Positions 4,515 to 57,460 are shown, counted from the stretch's first letter. The stretch is 64,000 nucleotides of DNA from an uncultured Planctomycetia bacterium (GCA_903929765.1 CAIYVX010000063.1:10174-74173), one strand, 5' to 3'. Notes: a model not told the origin generated them from the sequence alone. A program made the numbers and translations.

Positions 4515-6158
4515 TCACGCCTTCCGCCGATGCACAATATCGAAAAATTCTTCCAGCCTCAATAATTTCGCCGCCGCCAAATACACCCCGCCGCCCACCA
4601 CCGTCGCCGCCGCCAGCGCCGCCCAGGCCTGCGCCTTGCCCCCCGGCGCCAAGCCGCCCAGACCCGCCAACTCCATCGCCCCCCACGCCGCCGCCGTCAT
4701 CGCCGCCGTCGCCAAAACGCTCCGCCACAGCGTCGATAAATATTGCCGCAACCCCAGCCGTCCCAGCCGCCGCCGCAGCACCCACACCAGCCACAGGCAT
4801 TGTCCCCCCGCGCACAGCACCGTCGAGGCCGCCAGCCCCTCCAGCCCGAAATACCAGATCGAGGTCACGTTCAGCACAAAGTTGACCCCCGCCGCCGCCA
4901 TCGATGTCCGTACCGGCACGCGAGGTTCCTGCAACGCAAAAAACGCCCGCGTCACCAGATGTTGCACCGCAAACGGCAGCAGTCCGATCCCATAAATCGC
5001 CGTCATCCTCGCCACCTGCGGCGTGTCGGCCGGGTCGAACTTCCCGTGCTCAAACAGCACCCGCACCAGCGGCACAGCGGCGAGCGCCAGCCCCGCCGAG
5101 CACGGCAACGCGATCACTGTCGCCACGCGCAACCCCTGGTTCAGCGTCGCCGCCAGGCCCCGATGATCCACGTTCGCCGCATGACGCGCCAGCGCCGGAA
5201 AGATCGCCGTCCCCAGCGCGATGATGAACACACCCAGCGGCAACTGGTACAGCCGCTGCCCCAGGTACATCACCGAGTTGGCCGTCGCCTCCAGCGGATA
5301 TTTTATCGTGTGCCCCAGGAACTCAAACGTCGTCACCAGCCGCGCCGGGTCCGCCGCGTCCGGGTGCGGACTGAAGAACTGGGCCAGAAGTTGGTTTATG
5401 TAAATGTTAAATTGCACCACGCCCAGGGCCAGGATCATCGGCAGCATCAGCACCGCGATCTCCCGCAGGTACGGCGAGGCCAGATCCCACGCCGGCCGGA
5501 ACCGGAACCCCGCCCGCCACAGCGGCGGCACCTGCATCCCCACGTTCACCACCCCCAGCACCAGCACGCTCACCGCCAGGGCGTAAGCCTGCCGCTCCTC
5601 GTTTCCCGGCCACAGGTACCGCCCGCCCGCGCAGACCGCGATCATCCCCACGTTCAGCACCACCGGCGCCAGCGCCGGCGCCGAAAAATGTCCCCGCACG
5701 TTCAGCACGCCCTGCAACAGCGCCACCAGGCAGACCGTGATCAGAAACGGCAGCATCACCGCCGAAAGGCCCAGCGTCAGCTCAAACCGCGGGTCCGCCG
5801 CCCCGCCCCGGGCCACCGCCCAGTTGATGATCCAGATAATCCCCTCGCCGCACAGCGTCACCCCGGCCAGCAGCACCACCAGCACGGTGATGGCCAGGCA
5901 GGCCAGTTGCCGCGCCGCCTCCTCTTCCTTCTTTTCGACCAGGCGGGTGTAAACGGGCAGGAATGTGGTGGTCAGCGCCCCTTCGCCAAACAGCGTCCGA
6001 AACAGGTTGGGCAGCACGAACGCCGGCACCCAGGAATTCATCACCCCGCTCAGCCCGAACGCCGCCGCCAGGGCCATGTCGCGACCCAAGCCGGTCACGC
6101 GGCTGACGATGGTCAGGATCGATAACGTGCGGGCGTGTCTGACGAAATCGGCGGCCAC
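4515..6158 (-). CDS. murJ: Lipid II flippase MurJ (MviN).
   Basis: 547-aa polytopic membrane protein. The N-terminus ...TIVSRVTGLGRDMALAAAFG..., the overall length and the hydrophobic profile are typical of MurJ. Confidence 0.9.
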   Translation of the reverse strand: MAADFVRHARTLSILTIVSRVTGLGRDMALAAAFGLSGVMNSWVPAFVLPNLFRTLFGEGALTTTFLPVYTRLVEKKEEEAARQLACLAITVLVVLLAGVTLCGEGIIWIINWAVARGGAADPRFELTLGLSAVMLPFLITVCLVALLQGVLNVRGHFSAPALAPVVLNVGMIAVCAGGRYLWPGNEERQAYALAVSVLVLGVVNVGMQVPPLWRAGFRFRPAWDLASPYLREIAVLMLPMILALGVVQFNIYINQLLAQFFSPHPDAADPARLVTTFEFLGHTIKYPLEATANSVMYLGQRLYQLPLGVFIIALGTAIFPALARHAANVDHRGLAATLNQGLRVATVIALPCSAGLALAAVPLVRVLFEHGKFDPADTPQVARMTAIYGIGLLPFAVQHLVTRAFFALQEPRVPVRTSMAAAGVNFVLNVTSIWYFGLEGLAASTVLCAGGQCLWLVWVLRRRLGRLGLRQYLSTLWRSVLATAAMTAAAWGAMELAGLGGLAPGGKAQAWAALAAATVVGGGVYLAAAKLLRLEEFFDIVHRRKA

Positions 6159-10159: not shown

Positions 10160-10983
10160 TCACAAAAGTGGGTCCAGAAACGCCATCGCCTCGTCCGCCA
10201 CCTGCCGCGCCGTCGATTCGTACGGATAAAGTTCCACCGTGATCCACCCATCGTATCCGATGTCCCGCAGGGCCGCAAACACCGCCGTATAGTCAATCGC
10301 CCCGCGCCCGGGCACCAGATGCCGATGTTCCCGCGACGGCGCAATGTCTTCCAGGTGCACGTGCCGAATCCACGGCGCCAGCGTCCGCGCCGCCTGCGCC
10401 GGGTCTTCCCCCACGCAATAAAAATGCCCGATGTCGAAGTTCAGCGCCACCTGACCGTGCGGCACCGTCCCGATAAATTCCAGAAAATCGTCCGTCCGCT
10501 CCAGCAGCAGTTTCGGCTCCGGCTCAATCAAGAGTGTCACGCCCAGCTCCCGCGCCAGCGGATAGACCATCTGAAGTCCCAGCCGATAATACTCCATCGC
10601 CTGCTCTCTGCTCATCCCCGCCGGCACCGGCCCGCCCGGCTCCAGGCTGATCGACTTCGCCCCGATTTCCGCCGCCAGGCGCAAACAATTTTCCGTATGC
10701 TCCACCCGCTGCGCCCGTACCGCCGGCGAAGGATCGATCCACGACGGATTATATGTGTCGCCCAGGGCGAAAAACGTGAACGCGTTGATGTTCGAGATTT
10801 TCAGGTTCAGTTCGCCGAGCAACTCCACCAGCCGCCGCGTCCGCCGCCGCGTCAGGTGCGGCGGATAGGCGTGCGGCACATCGGCCATAATCTCCACGCC
10901 CGCGTAACCCGCCTCGGCAATCTGCCGCACCGATTCTTCCAGGCTCACCTGCTTGAACGCATTGGTCGAAAAGGCCAGTTTCA
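10160..10983 (-). CDS. Sugar phosphate isomerase/epimerase (xylose-isomerase-like TIM barrel).
   Basis: The real start is MKLAFSTNAFKQ (ATG at 10983, overlapping the upstream stop codon in an ATGA arrangement). The rest of the 371-aa ORF in the track is G-rich read-through. The GHFYCVGEDP and ITVELYPY motifs are typical of the family. Confidence 0.8.
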
Positions 10984-11883
10984 TTTCAGCCCGATCCTCT
11001 CCAAATGCTCCCGTCCCGCCACCACCTTCTCCGCCGACCACTGCGCCGCCAGTTCCATCACCCGCACGCACGGACTTCCCGCCACCCGCGCCGCCACACC
11101 CGCCAGGTCCAACTCCCCCTGACCCGGCGGCTGATGATCGGCCGTCCGAATCATGTCGTGAATATGCACGCCCAGCAGCCGCTCCCGGAACCGTTCCAGC
11201 CACGACATTTCCGGCACCCCCGCAAAGATTTGCATCATCCGCGCGTGCCCGCAATCGTGCCAATATCCCAGCCACGGACCCACCGCGTCGAACATCGCCT
11301 GCAACTCCTCCGGGTGCGGCAAGCTGTTGTAATGGTAATGAACCTCCACCCCGACCGGAAATTCCCCCACCCGCAGGAACACCTGGTTCAGCGAATCAAT
11401 CGTCCGCGCCAGCCGGTCCGGCGCCTCCGCCGCCCGCAGCGGTTCGAGCGCCGCCAGTTCCTTGCGAAACCCCGGGCATTCGCCGTACATCTGATACAGC
11501 GCCACCAGCGCCGCCACCCGCCCCGCCAACTCGCCGCCAATCGCCCCCGCGTGCGTCACCACCGCCCGCGCCCTCAGCCGCCGGGCCAACTCAATCGTGC
11601 GACACAGGGCCTCGACCGTCGCTTGCCGTTTTGCGTCGTCCGGCGAGCCGATGTGCGACCCGCGCGGATCGATCCCCGCCTCGGCGTTGAACCCCGCCAC
11701 GGCATGAATGCTCGACACCACGATCTCGCCTGCCCGCACCGCCGCCTCAACCTCGTCGGCGTTGAGCTGGATCTTCGAAATGCCCCATTCAATCGCCCCA
11801 AACCCCAGGCGCCGCACCTGGGCCAAAGCCTCCGTCGTCGAGACCGCCGGATCATTAAACCACGCTGTTGAGAGGGAAAGCAC
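10981..11883 (-). CDS. Sugar phosphate isomerase/epimerase family protein, a paralog of the downstream gene.
   Basis: 300-aa TIM-barrel-like sequence (LGFGAIEW...VVTHAG...HYHYNSLPHPEE...HIHDM). It is translationally adjacent to both the GT4 gene and the next isomerase gene. Confidence 0.75.
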   Translation of the reverse strand: MLSLSTAWFNDPAVSTTEALAQVRRLGFGAIEWGISKIQLNADEVEAAVRAGEIVVSSIHAVAGFNAEAGIDPRGSHIGSPDDAKRQATVEALCRTIELARRLRARAVVTHAGAIGGELAGRVAALVALYQMYGECPGFRKELAALEPLRAAEAPDRLARTIDSLNQVFLRVGEFPVGVEVHYHYNSLPHPEELQAMFDAVGPWLGYWHDCGHARMMQIFAGVPEMSWLERFRERLLGVHIHDMIRTADHQPPGQGELDLAGVAARVAGSPCVRVMELAAQWSAEKVVAGREHLERIGLK

Positions 11884-13134
11884 TTAAACCAAACCTTTCT
11901 TCCGCGCCAACTCTTCAAACAACTCTTCATGCCGTTTCACAAACCGTTCCGCCGAAAACTCCTGACGCACCCAGGCTTTTCCTTCTTCCGCCATGCGCCG
12001 CGTTTCGTCCTCGTATTTCAGCGCCTGAAAAATCCCCGCCGCGATGCCTTTGGGATACCCCGGCTCCACCAGCCGTCCGCAACGCCCGTCGGCCACCAAC
12101 TCGCGCATCCCCGCCACGTCGCTCACCACCACCGGCGTCCCCGCCAGCATCGCCTCCAGCACCGCGTTGCTCATCCCCTCGTGGAAACTCGGCAGAATAA
12201 ACAGGTCCGCACGCCGCAAAATCGCCGGCACGTCCGTCCGCGGCCCCACCAGTGTCACGTACCCCTCCACCCGCATCCGCTCCACTTCAAACGCCAGCCG
12301 CGACCGCTCCGGCCCGTCCCCCACAATCCACAAATGCACCGGGCAACGCGTGTGCCGCAACAGGCCCATCGCCCACATCAGGTAAATCAAGCCCTTCTGC
12401 CGCGTCAGCCGACATGCCGTCACCACCAGCTTGTGCCCCGCCGGCACCTCCGGCAGTTGCACAGTGGCACGGGCATCTTGCCCGTGAGTCGCAGGGGCAT
12501 CTTGCCCCTGTGCCTTTGTTGCTTTTTTTTCTTCTTCACCCCTCTCCCTTGAGGGGAGAGGGTAGGGAGAGGGTGTTGCTTCTTCTTTTTCTTCGCTGTT
12601 GTTCTGTTGTTCAATCTCCCCCAACTTTATCCCCGCATGAATGACCCGAATCTTCTCCGCCGGCCAACCGTGCCCCAGCCCATATTCCCGCACCCCCGCC
12701 GAGTTGGCCACAATCGCATCCGTCCGCCGCCCCAGCCGCCGGTCCAGCCAATGGTGCAATCCCGGCTTCGGCCCGCTGTCCTGTTCCCCCGCCACGATCA
12801 CCGGCACCCCCGCCCGCAGCGCCGCCGCCCGACCGAACGCGTTCGCCGTGAACATCCACGTGTACGCAATATCCGTCTGCCGCTCTTTCAGCAGCCGCTC
12901 CAGGCGCAGCACCACGCGCAGGTCGTACTTGAACGCCTTATTCAGTATCGTTACCGGAATCCCCGCCGCCCGAATTTCCGCCTCATGCGGCCCGCCTCGC
13001 GTCAGCGCATAGACGTCCACCTCGAACCGCGCCGGGTCGAGCCGCCGAGCCAGCAGGGCCAACTGCTTCTCCGCTCCCGCCCGGTCCAGTGTCGCGATAA
13101 TCAAGGCCACCCGCAACTTTCTCATGGGAGGCAC
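11884..13134 (-). CDS. GT4-family glycosyltransferase carrying an in-frame low-complexity insertion of about 55 aa encoded by palindromic repeats.
   Basis: The N-terminal Rossmann domain (KLRVALIIATLDRAGAEKQ) and the C-terminal EGMSNAVLEAMLAGTPVV are typical of GT4. The insertion GEIEQQNNSEEKEEATPSPYPLPSRERGEEEKKATKAQGQDAPATHGQDARATVQLPE is encoded by repeat DNA at 12468-12575. Confidence 0.8.
   Translation of the reverse strand: MPPMRKLRVALIIATLDRAGAEKQLALLARRLDPARFEVDVYALTRGGPHEAEIRAAGIPVTILNKAFKYDLRVVLRLERLLKERQTDIAYTWMFTANAFGRAAALRAGVPVIVAGEQDSGPKPGLHHWLDRRLGRRTDAIVANSAGVREYGLGHGWPAEKIRVIHAGIKLGEIEQQNNSEEKEEATPSPYPLPSRERGEEEKKATKAQGQDAPATHGQDARATVQLPEVPAGHKLVVTACRLTRQKGLIYLMWAMGLLRHTRCPVHLWIVGDGPERSRLAFEVERMRVEGYVTLVGPRTDVPAILRRADLFILPSFHEGMSNAVLEAMLAGTPVVVSDVAGMRELVADGRCGRLVEPGYPKGIAAGIFQALKYEDETRRMAEEGKAWVRQEFSAERFVKRHEELFEELARKKGLV
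12468..12575. repeat. Cluster of palindromic repeats inside the GT4 coding sequence: tandem hairpins CACGGGCATCTTGCCCGTG (12468-12486) and CAGGGGCATCTTGCCCCTG (12492-12510), plus CACCCCTCTCCCTTGAGGGGAGAGGGTAGGGAGAGGGTG (12537-12575).
   Basis: Perfect 8-bp stems are visible. The first hairpin recurs intergenically at 57412-57430. The CCCTCTCCC...GGGAGAGGG type recurs at 20971-21020, 38896-38949 and 45051-45094. Confidence 0.75.
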
Positions 13135-13423
13135 ATCTTACACCGCTCCCGCCGGCAGGACAAGGCTGCGGCCATCGGCTTTGCCGTGGAAGGGACAGGG
13201 CACGCCCTGTCCGGCTGTTGTTGTGTGCGGGAAGGGGCGTTTTTTCTCCGCCCTGGCCGTACCGGCGGGAGCCGGCGCCCAAAGTTTTTTCTGCTGTTTC
13301 TTTTGTTTCTGCCGTACCTGAAGCCTGCTGTTCTGAAGTCGGCCGTTCCAAAACAGCGCGGACCAAGCCTCTGCCTTCAGAAGCCTGGTCCGCGATTCTC
13401 GTAAGCTGAAAGAACTTCCTGGG

Positions 13424-13738
13424 TTACCAGCGTCCGCCGCCGCCACCGCCGCGCCCGCCGCGACCACCACCCCCGCCGCCACCGCCGCCGGCCGCCTTGG
13501 GCTTGGCCACGTTGACGGTCAGTTTGCGCCCGTCCACATCGCGCCCGTCGAGCGCCGCTATGGCCGCCTGGGCTTGGCTGTCATCGCCCATTTCGACGAA
13601 GCCGAAACCACGCGATTGCCCCGTGGCCCGGTCGGTGATGAGCGACACACGCTGAATCTCGCCAAACTCGGAGAAAAGCTGGCGAACTTCTTCTTCGCCA
13701 AACCCGAACGGCAGATTCCCCACATAAATATTCACCAT
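13424..13738 (-). CDS. RRM-domain RNA-binding protein with a glycine/arginine-rich tail.
   Basis: NIYVGNLPF (RNP2) and RGFGFVEM (RNP1) followed by a GGGGGGGGRGGRGGGGGG tail. The start is MVNIYVG at 13738. Confidence 0.85.
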   Translation of the reverse strand: MVNIYVGNLPFGFGEEEVRQLFSEFGEIQRVSLITDRATGQSRGFGFVEMGDDSQAQAAIAALDGRDVDGRKLTVNVAKPKAAGGGGGGGGGRGGRGGGGGGRW

Positions 13739-13966
13739 CCAAGTGCTCCCGTGAACTGCAACCGAACCGGAGGCCGATCCGCGCGGTCCCGCGACCACGC
13801 TGAAAAGAGAGTGCCGCCCGTCGGCAGTCTGATATCCTATCTACAGTTGACCGCAGGGGACGGTTTAATGCAAGTTAATTCCAGCGGGATTGACGATCGA
13901 CCACCGGCCACGCCGCCACCGGACGACTTGTGCCCCACGCCGCCGTCGATTACAATTCCATTTGCT

Positions 13967-19771: not shown

Positions 19772-19799
19772 ATGTCGGGTCTGTTGACCCGACCTACAT
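19772..19799. repeat. REP-type palindrome in inverted orientation (ATGTCGGGTC-TGTT-GACCCGACCTACAT), 12 nt after the higA stop codon.
   Basis: Perfect 8-bp stem. Same family as 525-550. Confidence 0.8.
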
Positions 19800-19878: not shown

Positions 19879-20460
19879 ATGGGTGAAGTCTGGAAAATAA
19901 ACCTTGCGTCATGGATCATCCAAGACGGGAACTACGGCGATTTTGCCAAGGGCGACGAGTGTGAGTTTGCCCTTGAATTCTGGCCAGAGAGGCTTGAACT
20001 CACCGAACGGGCACAACCTTGTTGCACCTGGGTTAAGGACTGCTATTACAGCGTGACTGCTCGCATTGTTATGTGCCAGGAAGACGTTTGGGTACTCAAC
20101 TTCGGCCTGCTGGCCTATCAGGAATCATCGCCGCTGAAAGGACTGGCCATCGGTGATTGTGTGGCAGGAAGGATCGGCATTGGCATTGATCCCTTTTTCT
20201 ACTCCGAGCGCCTGCACGCCTTGCCCGGTATGCCGCCGCTGAATTACTCGTGGAAGATAGAGCGAATTCTACTCCAAACCGCGCCTTTCGTTGAAACAAC
20301 AAGGCCCGGTACCGGCAAAGTATTGGTGCGTGATGAAAGCAACCGCGGCTATCGCGATATCGGTAAGACGGATGCTTGGCATGACGATGGAGGCATCGCC
20401 GAGTATCTTTTGGAGTGTCGCCACAATGAAATTACACCGGCTCAGAGGACTTTGGCGTAG
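19879..20460 (+). CDS. Hypothetical Cys-rich protein of low GC, with no family I recognise.
   Basis: A strong ribosome-binding site GGAGG sits 7 nt upstream of the ATG at 19879. GC is about 52%. The protein is MGEVWKINLASWIIQDGNYGDFAKGDECEFALEFWPE... Confidence 0.5.
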   Translation: MGEVWKINLASWIIQDGNYGDFAKGDECEFALEFWPERLELTERAQPCCTWVKDCYYSVTARIVMCQEDVWVLNFGLLAYQESSPLKGLAIGDCVAGRIGIGIDPFFYSERLHALPGMPPLNYSWKIERILLQTAPFVETTRPGTGKVLVRDESNRGYRDIGKTDAWHDDGGIAEYLLECRHNEITPAQRTLA

Positions 20461-22034
20461 ATGACTTTGTCGTCGGCGGGGGCGTAGAAGTCTTTGACGC
20501 GGGCGGCTTCGTGGTAGCCGACGCGGAGGTAGAAGGCGCGGGTGGAGTGGTAGCTGGGGCGGCCGTTGGTTTCGACGATGACCAGGCGGCCGGCGCGGGT
20601 GCGGATTTCATTTTCGGCGAAAGTCATCAGGGCCTTGCCGAGGCCGCGCGATTGGCGGCGCGGATCGACGGCGATCCAATAGATATCGAAGGTACCCTGG
20701 GCGCAGGGGGCGGGACCGTAACAGACCCAGCCGGCAGGACGGCCGTCGAGGTCGGCAGTAATAGATTGGTAATGGCCGTGATGGCCTTTGGCCAGGGCGT
20801 CGTCGAGGACTTCGCGGGCGATTTCTATTTCGTCGTCGCGGAAAAAGTCAGTGGCGATCATGAATTCGAGAATGGGGTCGCGGTCGGCGGGGAGGGAGCG
20901 GCGGATCGAAAAACTAGGGTCTGTCCCTAGTTTTTGGGAGACGTTCGTGGAGTCTGACGCACAGGGCCTCAACCCCTCACCCGGCCCTTGCGGGCCACCC
21001 TCTCCCGAGGGAGAGGGGTTAAAAGCAGCAAGGCGACGGGCGGCGTTTTCGACCAGGGTGCGGATGAACTCGTGGTAGGGGATGTTGGCGGCGGCGAGGG
21101 CGGCGGCCAGGCCGGCGTCGGAGGAAAGGTCGGGGTTGGAGTTGACCTCAATGATGGAAGGTGAGACGCGCTGGTCGAGGCGGAGATCGACGCGGACGTA
21201 GTCGCGGCAACCGAGGGCGTGCCAGGCGTCGAGGACGCACTGGCGGACGCGGTCGGCCTGGCGCGAGGTGAGCGGCGCGGGGATGATGCGATTTGTATGG
21301 TGATATTCAAATGATTCCGGTTGCCACTTGGCGGCATAGCCGACGATGCGCGGTCGGTCGTTGCCGAAGTCGGAGAAGTCGATTTCGGCCAGGGGCAGGA
21401 CCTGGGGCAGGCCGCGACGCTCGATGACGGAGACGTTGAGTTCGCGCTGGCCGACGAATTGTTCGACGAGGGCGGGCTGGTGGAACTGGTGGTGGATGGC
21501 GTGGATGGCTTCGGCGAGTTTCGGTCCCGGCTCGGAAACGACGGAATGGGCGTCGATGCCTTCGCTGGCGTCGGCGGCGACGGGTTTGACGATCCAGGGT
21601 CCGGGCGGGAGGTCGCGCGGGCGGACGGCCTGGCCGACGGGAATAAGCACGGCGGCGGGGCACGGGAGGCTGGCGGCGGCGAGGACGGCTTTGGAGCGCC
21701 ATTTGTCGAGGGTGAGGAAAAGGTTAGGCGTGTCGCCGCCGGTGGATTCTTTGCCGTAGGCGGCGCAGAGGGCGGGGACGGAGGCGGGCGAGCCGGGACC
21801 GAGGCGGAGCTCTTCGACCAGGTTGAAGACGAGCGGTTCGGGTGCGGCGGCGAGGATGGCGGGGAGGTCGGCGAGCGAGCGGAGGCCGAGGGCGCGGTAG
21901 GCGACGCCGAGTTGGCCGAGGGCGGCGACGACGGCTTCGACTTCGGCGAGGACTCCGGTGTCGCTGGCGGAGAATTTGTCTCCGGCTTCGGGAGTGTTAA
22001 AGAGAATGATAACGGCGGGAAGTTCGGCGTTCAT
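20442..22034 (-). CDS. Fusion protein with an N-terminal D-Ala-D-Ala-ligase-like ATP-grasp domain and a C-terminal GNAT N-acetyltransferase domain. The two domains are joined by a linker that is encoded by a palindromic repeat.
   Basis: The true start is MNAELPAVIILFN (ATG at 22034, overlapping the upstream stop codon in an ATGA arrangement). ATP-grasp blocks: WIVKPVAADASEGI and IIEVNSNPDLS. Linker: NPSPSGEGGPQGPGEGLRP. GNAT block: IRRSLPADRDPILEF...QSRGLGKALM...GYHE. The 5' 290 nt of the 626-aa ORF in the track are read-through across the upstream gene. Confidence 0.75.
   Translation of the reverse strand: MNAELPAVIILFNTPEAGDKFSASDTGVLAEVEAVVAALGQLGVAYRALGLRSLADLPAILAAAPEPLVFNLVEELRLGPGSPASVPALCAAYGKESTGGDTPNLFLTLDKWRSKAVLAAASLPCPAAVLIPVGQAVRPRDLPPGPWIVKPVAADASEGIDAHSVVSEPGPKLAEAIHAIHHQFHQPALVEQFVGQRELNVSVIERRGLPQVLPLAEIDFSDFGNDRPRIVGYAAKWQPESFEYHHTNRIIPAPLTSRQADRVRQCVLDAWHALGCRDYVRVDLRLDQRVSPSIIEVNSNPDLSSDAGLAAALAAANIPYHEFIRTLVENAARRLAAFNPSPSGEGGPQGPGEGLRPCASDSTNVSQKLGTDPSFSIRRSLPADRDPILEFMIATDFFRDDEIEIAREVLDDALAKGHHGHYQSITADLDGRPAGWVCYGPAPCAQGTFDIYWIAVDPRRQSRGLGKALMTFAENEIRTRAGRLVIVETNGRPSYHSTRAFYLRVGYHEAARVKDFYAPADDKVIYAKVL
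20971..21020. repeat. Palindromic repeat AACCCCTCACCCGGCCCTTGCGGGCCACCCTCTCCCGAGGGAGAGGGGTT that forms the in-frame interdomain linker of the ATP-grasp/GNAT gene.
   Basis: Outer inverted repeat AACCCCTC/GAGGGGTT, with inner hairpins GGCCCTTGCGGGCC and CCCTCTCCCGAGGGAGAGGG. Same family as 12537-12575, 38896-38949 and 45051-45094. Confidence 0.75.
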
Positions 22035-27777: not shown

Positions 27778-27805
27778 ATGTCGGGTCTGTTGACCCGACC
27801 TACAT
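27778..27805. repeat. REP-type palindrome (ATGTCGGGTC-TGTT-GACCCGACCTACAT) between the folK stop codon and the panC start codon.
   Basis: Perfect 8-bp stem. Same family as 525-550. Confidence 0.8.
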
Positions 27806-38895: not shown

Positions 38896-39030
38896 AAACC
38901 CCTCACCCTGCCCGTTGGGCCCCCTCTCCCAAGGGAGAGGGGTGAAACGACAAAAGAAACGGCATCCCCCAGCAGTGCTGGGGGCTTCAAAAGAAAAGCA
39001 ATAACAGAAACAACGGCAACGCCAAGCGGA
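38896..39030. repeat. Composite intergenic repeat block made of a CCCTCTCCC...GGGAGAGGG palindrome module (38896-38949) joined to a CCCCCAGCAGTGCTGGGGG hairpin module with AACAACGGCAACGCCAAGCGG.
   Basis: The same modules recur at 47527-47600, 55566-55645, 34495-34560, 53266-53320 and 4447-4471. Confidence 0.7.
38958..38990 (-). terminator. Candidate intrinsic terminator for the lipoprotein gene 39098-39664. On the minus strand it reads GCCCCCAGCACTGCTGGGGG followed by ATGCCGTTTCTTTTGTCGTTT.
   Basis: An 8-bp GC-rich stem followed by a T-rich tract on the minus strand, about 110 nt after the stop codon. Confidence 0.45.
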
Positions 39031-44946: not shown

Positions 44947-45050
44947 GATGGCGGGGATTATAGCAGAACGGCAACGACGGTGGACAGTGGGTAGTGGTCA
45001 GTGGACAGTGAACAGCAACGACAGCACTCCTGGATTCGGATGAAACTGGT

Positions 45051-45094
45051 GTCACCCGCACCCTACCCTCCCCCGTCAAGGGGGAGGGGTGAAG
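45051..45094. repeat. Palindromic repeat GTCACCCGCACCCTACCCTCCCCCGTCAAGGGGGAGGGGTGAAG.
   Basis: Variant of the CCCTCTCCC...GGGAGAGGG family with outer CACCC/GGGTG arms. Confidence 0.6.
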
Positions 45095-57344: not shown

Positions 57345-57402
57345 GTAGGTCGGGTCAACAGACCCGACATTATCAGTAGCACGTCGGGTCTGTTGACCCG
57401 AC
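57345..57402. repeat. Tandem inverted pair of REP-type palindromes (GTAGGTCGGGTC-AACA-GACCCGACAT and ACGTCGGGTC-TGTT-GACCCGAC), 5 nt after the nusA stop codon. A CACGGGCAAGATGCCCGTG hairpin follows at 57412-57430.
   Basis: Two perfect 8-bp-stem hairpins in opposite orientation, 10 nt apart. The third hairpin is identical to the one inside the GT4 gene. Confidence 0.8.
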
Positions 57403-57460
57403 TAACGTTCTACAAAGCTCACGGGCAAGATGCCCGTGCTACTGTAAAGGGAGAGCCTCA

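Follow-up and report, generated by a model that had tools for sequence, protein, structure and literature searches.

The 64,000-nucleotide stretch analysed here (the window; GCA_903929765.1 CAIYVX010000063.1:10174-74173, uncultured Planctomycetia bacterium) carries on its minus strand a GT4 glycosyltransferase gene, and the linker between the two domains of the encoded protein contains an in-frame cluster of palindromic repeats, two of which resemble repetitive extragenic palindromes (REPs). A first-pass annotation of the window had placed the gene at 11884-13134. This open reading frame (ORF) of 416 aa is present, and Pfam agreed with the assignment, with Glyco_transf_4 at residues 20-171 and Glycos_transf_1 at residues 232-388, both far above the cut-offs. 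The start is likely the ATG at 13125, which gives MRKLRV and a protein of 413 aa; all orthologs and database entry P0121 start in the same way, and the upstream GTG at 13134 would lengthen the protein by three codons. The EX7E motif, read from the sequence as EGMSNAVLE, is intact at residues 316-324 of the 413-aa protein and occupies near-invariant alignment columns. In addition, the AlphaFold2 model had a mean predicted local distance difference test score (pLDDT) of 91 and a predicted TM-score (pTM) of 0.87, with both Rossmann domains above pLDDT 90, and the best Foldseek matches of the model were HepE, PglA, BshA, and MshA, with a target-normalised TM-score (TMt) of ~0.8. With two Rossmann-like domains, the Pfam pair, and the EX7E motif all present, the protein is a GT4 glycosyltransferase with a GT-B fold. 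The NusA protein of the window was closest to those of uncultured Planctomycetota, and the best named matches were Phycisphaerae.

The insert peptide quoted in the first-pass annotation is found in the GT4 protein between the two domains, and the insert-bearing 413-aa protein includes the stretch EEKEEATPSPYPLPSR. The insert had been described as an in-frame insertion of about 55 codons at 12420-12614. That interval corresponds to an ORF in an alternative frame; the insertion is indeed in frame, and its size has to be revised to a variable linker of 52 codons (Table 1) with a net gain of 43. The comparison with orthologs proposed at that stage showed that the insert is lineage-specific. More than 90 homologs, orthologs and paralogs together, lack it and have a linker of only 9-11 residues. 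The nearest insert-free orthologs, P0002 and P0003, share 91% and 89% identity with the window protein when the linker is left aside, and 81% and 78% across the full BLASTP alignment; DNA alignment gave a net gain of 129 nt over these orthologs. Moreover, in the five nearest ortholog clusters (90% clusters) all members were at most 375 aa long and none had the insert. All other homologs being short-linkered, the extra segment appears to be a gain rather than a loss. An ancestral low-complexity loop was rejected on the basis of the ortholog alignments.

Three allelic states were found at the site. The long form, that of the window, is present on two different contigs, an 84-kb contig (P0121) and a 4.4-kb contig (P0001, from sample ERZ1426725), whose proteins differ by one residue inside the insert. 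An intermediate form with a single REP and a linker of 15 codons, GEISEEATHGQDARATVQLPE, is carried by a close relative (L123/P0122, from sample JGI 3300037110) whose protein has 95% amino-acid identity to the window GT4 at dS 0.26; the window allele exceeds this short allele by 108 nt. The third form, without any repeat, occurs in L001, L002, and L003, and linkers of 9-11 codons are found in the more distant orthologs. The linker site would therefore, judged from these alignments, have changed at least twice. A metagenome scan with the GT4 protein returned one further close relative (L127), whose contig ends before the linker and adds no allele.

The insert contains three palindromes, as the first-pass annotation had noted, and the 8-bp stems it gave for the tandem pair are exact. 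The first two, units B1 and B2, form a 24-nt head-to-tail tandem in which each unit has a perfect 8-bp stem and a 3-nt loop, and both fold as predicted, as DNA and as RNA. B1, which encodes HGQDARAT on the gene strand, is common to the window and L123. A compensatory C-G to G-C swap in the stem sets B2 apart from B1, and L123 lacks B2. The third palindrome, unit C, has as its exact palindrome CCCTCTCCCTTGAGGGGAGAGGG at 12540-12562 and lies between two T-rich spacers. The first 21 nt of the second spacer (12574-12594) repeat positions 12517-12537 at 86%, so that the pair brackets unit C. These direct repeats could have arisen as a target duplication or could be the element's A/G-rich tail; GGGGTGAAGAAGCA is likewise found after the unit C copy at 45066, and the 21-nt repeats may thus belong to the element.

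The three palindromes are not due to chance. The B1 hairpin had five strand-matches at three window sites, compared with 0.04 expected in shuffled sequences, and hairpins with a stem of at least 8 bp numbered 23 in the window against 7.9 ± 2.6 in simulations. At that simulated frequency 0.019 such hairpins are expected per 156 nt, and the linker has three. The G+C content of the insert dips to 0.50 (~50%) against 65-70% for the GT4 gene, and the insert folds more stably than its shuffles (DNA, z = -6.4; RNA, -70.3 kcal/mol, z = -4.1). Rfam gave no match at the gathering score anywhere in the window and only chance-level matches in 12300-12750, and a known structured RNA was rejected on this result. 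An intein or intron was also rejected, since the added 129 nt are far too short and lack the motifs of such elements.

The flanks of the dispersed hairpin copies identified B1 and B2 more closely. A scan of genome contigs returned the exact 19-mer palindrome of B1 in more than 119 loci (L004-L122) of more than 10 phyla; the counts of 135 and 138 copies given below refer to the matches listed. The hosts include Planctomycetota, Verrucomicrobiota and Kiritimatiellia, Lentisphaerae, Elusimicrobia, Cyanobacteria, Acidobacteria, Armatimonadota, Chloroflexi-type metagenome-assembled genomes (MAGs), Hydrogenedentota, and Sumerlaeota. Among 135 oriented copies the 3' flank was C (85%), C or T (61% and 32%), A (94%), and C (98%), and the upstream flank was random. 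On the other strand this C[C/T]AC flank reads as GT[A/G]G followed by the palindrome, the signature of a GTAG-tagged REP. Several foreign loci had two or three hairpin copies, adjacent units were covarying stem variants (for example, GTGGCATGGGCGTCCCGCCCATG and GTGGCACTGGCGTCTCGCCAGTG), inverted doublets were found in L053, L070, L110, and L116, and in L014 the B2 stem variant is found next to a copy of B. The stem of 8 bp and loop of 3 nt of B1 and B2 lie within the 5-13 bp and 2-20 nt that define REPs, and an unpaired GTAG/GTRG end is present as GTAG at 57439-57442, as GTGG in B1, and in degenerate form as GTCG in B2. By these features, B1 and B2 are classified as GTAG-type REP units, GTAG-19-like in the nomenclature of Di Nocera et al. 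That a single 19-nt palindrome is identical across phyla is unusual for REPs, most of which are species-specific, and suggests either horizontal spread of REPs with their transposases or strong constraint. In one Anaerolineales MAG (L006, 1296-1520) the hairpin occurs three times with an exact period of 103 nt; this array is a tandem of a longer unit with two different hairpins.

Within the window, three copies of B and five of a related family A were counted. The recurrence of the hairpin downstream of nusA had already been noticed, at 57412-57430; the copy exists and its hairpin lies eight bases further on, at 57420-57438. It has a canonical GTAG head, adjoins two family A REPs, and is located between nusA, whose identity was confirmed, and infB. 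Family A, GTAG+GTCGGGTCAACAGACCCGAC, is the commonest hairpin of the window; its five copies are all intergenic, with the GTAG head in 4/5. Therefore, the host genome clearly carries GTAG REPs. Family A was absent among the 119 foreign loci, and on this distribution it may be lineage-specific.

Unit C represents a second palindromic family, untagged, whose flanks are conserved and whose stems show compensatory changes; the window has three further copies of it. A hand alignment of the insert with the intergenic copy at 45066 extended the similarity to ~12533-12580 (~41/49 nt), again with compensatory changes in the stem. Short GTGGACAGTG/GTGGTCAGTG-like repeats lie beside that copy in the intergenic region 44960-45030. 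One of the other copies is itself in frame: in a gene for an ATP-grasp (D-Ala-D-Ala-ligase-like) and GNAT protein, the interdomain linker (~20863-21030) contains unit C together with a palindrome of 11-bp stem (20909-20935), and a 53%-identical homolog (P0123) has PLPLGEGRGEG at the equivalent place. Relatives of unit C also occur in other genomes.

The same hairpin was found in frame in unrelated genes elsewhere. Nine of the 138 listed copies (~6%) were in frame inside genes, and the remaining 129 were outside verified genes. The proteins concerned are a MiaB-like methylthiotransferase, a histidine kinase (with the copy inside HATPase_c), a UvrA-like protein, a UvrD-like helicase, a ResIII protein (two sites), an RND pump, a radical-SAM enzyme, a pectate lyase, and an RnfD fusion. 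In most of these genes, Pfam domains span the insertion point or flank it. The in-gene copies use all stop-free frames, which give HGQDARAT, TGKMPVP, GTGILPV, and HGHLARA.

A candidate source of mobility was found in one foreign genome, a Candidatus Sumerlaeota MAG (L037, CAZOKZ010000092.1). Its ORF 4741-5397 matched Pfam Y1_Tnp at 39.3 bits (cut-off 23) and NCBIfam REP_Tyr_transpos with an E value of 4e-21 at 75.3 bits, just under the cut-off of 80. The ORF is flanked on both sides by identical ~70-nt doublets (region 4642-5468), each made of two hairpins in inverted orientation that carry GGAG/CTCC tags; the exact 19-mer of REP B is one of these hairpins. In this genome alone, the ORF is thus predicted to be a REP-associated tyrosine transposase (RAYT)-like gene flanked by REPs. 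Together with the intergenic copies in the window and the foreign loci, this arrangement bears out the first-pass view of the insert as mobile or repeat DNA.

The structural model and the substitution pattern both suggest how the GT4 protein accommodates the insert. In the AlphaFold2 model, residues 187-218 fall below pLDDT 50, and the insert forms a disordered loop between helix 168-180 and the strand at 232-237 that comes first in the GT4 C-terminal domain; the loop position between the two Rossmann domains given in the first-pass annotation agrees with this. The flanking GT4 codons showed dN/dS of 0.073 against L001 and 0.107 against L123 (217-355 codons), consistent with a gene that is still functional and under purifying selection. 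The insert was said to keep the frame without a stop codon. This is correct, and it is weak evidence by itself, with two of the three sense frames (three of all six) being open; because the sense strand contains few T (14 in 156 nt), the absence of stops is unremarkable once the length is a multiple of three. No sense-strand terminator or promoter was found inside GT4. B2 and the following T-rich spacer (12511-12539) resemble an intrinsic terminator on the antisense strand only, as do all hairpin and T-run motifs of this kind in the gene, and in its present orientation the insert is not expected to terminate the mRNA, nor does it stop translation. The earlier alternatives were a recent tolerated insertion or a domesticated loop. 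Tolerance is supported, and the insertion does not appear to be very recent, because one REP is shared with L123 at 16% four-fold-site divergence and the gene would have been under purifying selection since. No positive evidence for domestication was found, and the insert is most readily viewed as a passenger that is tolerated and makes a flexible linker longer, rather than as an adapted module.

Taken together, the insert is very probably an in-frame cluster of small palindromic repeats of the type found in the intergenic DNA of this planctomycete. The cluster consists of two GTAG-type REPs (a GT[A/G/C]G head and a hairpin with an 8-bp stem), one CCCTCTCCC/GGGAGAGGG unit, and A/G-rich tails. 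The REPs would most likely spread through a REP-associated tyrosine (HUH/Y1) transposase acting on single-stranded hairpin DNA, a route that we infer for this genome. Copies would land more or less anywhere, and those that break genes would be removed by selection. The GT4 cluster may have survived since its length is a multiple of three, its T-poor sense strand has no stops, its terminator-like hairpin faces the antisense strand, and it sits in a disordered interdomain linker where the fold is left undisturbed. It would have changed in steps, from no repeat (9-11 codons) through one REP (15) to the present cluster (52).

Several observations weigh against this interpretation. A RAYT was not found within the 64-kb window with E. 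coli RayT and the L037 protein as queries, and active mobility in this organism is what we infer. The head of B2 is GTCG rather than GT[A/G]G, unit C has no GTAG tag, and the three allelic states fit stepwise gain and partial loss in L123 alike. Furthermore, the window and L123 differ at a single one of the 36 nt of the shared REP segment, B1 with its flanks, compared with 16% at four-fold sites (P = 0.013). This low divergence is a weak hint that some constraint or homogenisation may act on the REP.

It is conceivable, if unlikely, that the hairpins are actively maintained, either by selection at the DNA or RNA level or by homogenisation through RAYT or gene conversion, with the site acting as a nesting hot spot. 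If this were true, the alleles with 0, 1, and 3 units would document how REPs multiplied within a coding region in a natural population of planctomycetes, and in bacteria of the Planctomycetes-Verrucomicrobia-Chlamydiae (PVC) type interdomain linkers would regularly grow longer and more diverse through the nesting of REPs.

Growth of the cluster in place, by slippage or tandem duplication of a short hairpin-forming stretch with no dispersed arrivals, is improbable. The tandem of B1 and B2 and the direct repeats that bracket unit C are layouts that can arise in this way, and local duplication could account for some of the growth from the L123 state. However, slippage cannot yield sequences identical to dispersed families, and here the same GTRG-tagged 19-mer recurs across many phyla and between genes of the window, the B2 stem variant exists in L014, and unit C is present, with its flanks unchanged in kind, at three other window sites. 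A domesticated cluster, in which selection keeps the hairpins or the acidic disordered peptide, is marginally less probable still. Such a cluster might make translation pause at the domain boundary, act on mRNA stability, or tune the length of the linker, and the perfect palindromes of both in-gene hairpins, the low divergence of B1 from L123, and the stable fold of the mRNA segment are in favour of this reading. Nevertheless, the linker varies from 15 to 52 codons between close relatives and other orthologs have no insert, the modest P value can be accounted for just as well by homogenisation among copies of the REP, and the same REP occurs at unrelated positions in unrelated proteins, which speaks against a specific function, a view also taken in PMC3733652. 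An assembly chimera or a dead pseudogene that has retained its open frame is scarcely credible: the assembly is of metagenome type and short repeats can mislead assemblers, but the same insert on two contigs and a short form at the same site in a third sample exclude a chimera, and the dN/dS values of 0.07-0.11, the intact catalytic motif, and the two confidently modelled domains speak against a pseudogene.

As a cluster derived from dispersed repeats, the insert has close precedents. The repeats belong to a described family, the GTAG REPs, whose intragenic copies are already documented; the first-pass annotation recognised neither point. The GTAG REP superfamily was defined, and reported in the PVC superphylum, by Di Nocera, De Gregorio & Rocco (2013, BMC Genomics 14:522, PMC3733652). 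They found Opitutus terrae to be highly enriched in REPs, with GTGG heads in GTAG-20, and reported RAYT genes flanked by GTAG REPs. They also catalogued intragenic REPs, which reached their highest number in O. terrae and were frequently located in genes such as uvrA and UvrD, with in-gene dimers or clusters encoding 20-30 and up to 43-82 residues, and proposed that in-gene REPs are neutral from their position in linkers or loops. As in the O. terrae families GTAG-17 to GTAG-20, the repeat studied here is a short GTAG/GTGG-tagged palindrome; among the copies listed it occurs in dimers and clusters and is mostly intergenic, a minority of copies lie in frame in known genes and encode 20-80 residues, and in L037 a RAYT-like gene is flanked by the repeats. 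Even the encoded peptide is shared, as the supplement of that study gives a GTAG-19 dimer in Oter_3001 encoding ...VHGQDARATEF..., which includes HGQDARAT. Unlike the O. terrae case, the host is a Phycisphaerae-like planctomycete rather than a verrucomicrobium, the target is a GT4 gene ('glycosyl' was not found in the text of five supplementary files of PMC3733652), the REPs are mixed with a second, untagged palindromic family, and three allelic states of one site are available. A full-text literature search for the hairpin or its peptides returned nothing relevant.

The Rickettsia palindromic elements (RPE) were reportedly described by Ogata et al. in 2000. As summarised in PMC10969869, they resemble the present case in being palindromic repeats that lie in frame in unrelated housekeeping genes and add a peptide without destroying the protein. 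RPE are, however, single elements of ~100-150 bp with a conserved peptide, confined to Rickettsia, whereas the units here are 23-45 nt long, mosaic, and unrelated in sequence; PMC3733652 files RPE-4 and RPE-6 under the CGTC and not the GTAG superfamily. Membership among the RPE was rejected on unit size, host, and sequence family (a GTAG-19-like REP), although the behaviour is RPE-like. The REPs and bacterial interspersed mosaic elements (BIMEs) of E. coli and the REP doublets forming hairpins (REPINs) of Pseudomonas are similar (Nunvar 2010 and Bertels & Rainey 2011 on REP/REPIN and RAYT, as cited in PMC3733652): a GTAG head with an imperfect palindrome, mosaic clusters that include other short motifs, inverted doublets, and a single-copy Y1 transposase gene flanked by the repeats, as in L037. 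The E. coli and Pseudomonas elements are extragenic by definition and largely species-specific, whereas the 19-mer crosses phyla and ~6% of its listed copies are intragenic. [quoted passage not shown] MITEs have terminal inverted repeats derived from insertion sequences and target-site duplications; no such ends were found in the GT4 insert, where inverted termini were not detected beyond the hairpins and the 21-nt direct repeats are ambiguous.

Table 1. Coordinates of the GT4 gene, the parts of its repeat-bearing linker, and related repeats elsewhere in the window (positions counted from the first nucleotide of the window)
Feature	Position	Strand	Description
GT4 glycosyltransferase gene	11884-13125	minus	GT-B fold, retaining-type; 413 codons + stop; ORF listing, Pfam
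Variable interdomain linker with repeat cluster	12457-12612	minus	156 nt, 52 codons, EQQNNSEEKEEATPSPYPLPSRERGEEEKKATKAQGQDAPATHGQDARATVQ
REP unit B1	12464-12486	plus	head GTGG + palindrome CACGGGCATCTTGCCCGTG (12468-12486)
REP unit B2	12488-12510	plus	degenerate head GTCG + palindrome CAGGGGCATCTTGCCCCTG (12492-12510)
T-rich spacer	12511-12539	plus	A/G-rich on gene strand, encodes EEEKKATKA
Palindromic unit C	12540-12573	plus	CCCTCTCCC-TTGAG-GGGAGAGGG, then second AGGGAGAGGG arm; encodes PSPYPLPSRERG
Second T-rich spacer	12574-12612	plus	encodes EQQNNSEEKEEAT on gene strand
Unit C, in-frame copy	20998-21017	plus	interdomain linker of ATP-grasp/GNAT gene 20442-22034 (minus)
Unit C, intergenic copy	38921-38942	plus	upstream of lipoprotein-like gene
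Unit C, intergenic copy	45066-45088	plus	same flanks (ACCCTACCCTC...GGGGTGAAGAAGCA)
REP B, intergenic copy	57420-57442	minus	hairpin 57420-57438, canonical GTAG head 57439-57442; between nusA and infB
Family A copies	529-548, 19774-19793, 27780-27799, 57349-57368, 57383-57402		intergenic

The surroundings of the GT4 gene were also surveyed. The gene abuts the next gene (10981-11883, minus strand) with zero intergenic bases. Two xylose-isomerase-like TIM-barrel (AP_endonuc_2) genes follow GT4 in L123 (737-2460) and on the P0001 contig, and in the window the first of them was confirmed by Pfam; the conserved order of GT4 and AP_endonuc_2 genes suggests a sugar-modifying operon. Upstream of GT4, an RNA-binding protein with an RRM domain and a Gly/Arg-rich tail is encoded at 13424-13798 (minus strand), and the 290-nt spacer between this gene and GT4 contains another hairpin (13193-13212) and T-rich runs.

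The phenomenon itself was published in 2013. The present case adds no new principle; it is of value as a clean, well-supported example that extends the phenomenon to a new host and gene, for its three natural allelic states, and for showing how broad the repeat family is. In practice, peptides such as HGQDARAT, TGKMPVP, GTGILPV, or PLPSRERG derive from repeats when they occur in proteins of Planctomycetota, Verrucomicrobiota, and other phyla; they should be masked before homology searches, domain annotation, or structure prediction, and such inserts should not be taken for assembly errors. For the biology of these bacteria, the GT4 gene indicates that an essential-type enzyme can gain tens of residues from selfish hairpin repeats without harm if the repeats sit in a disordered interdomain linker, with natural intermediates of 0, 1, and 3 units preserved at one site.

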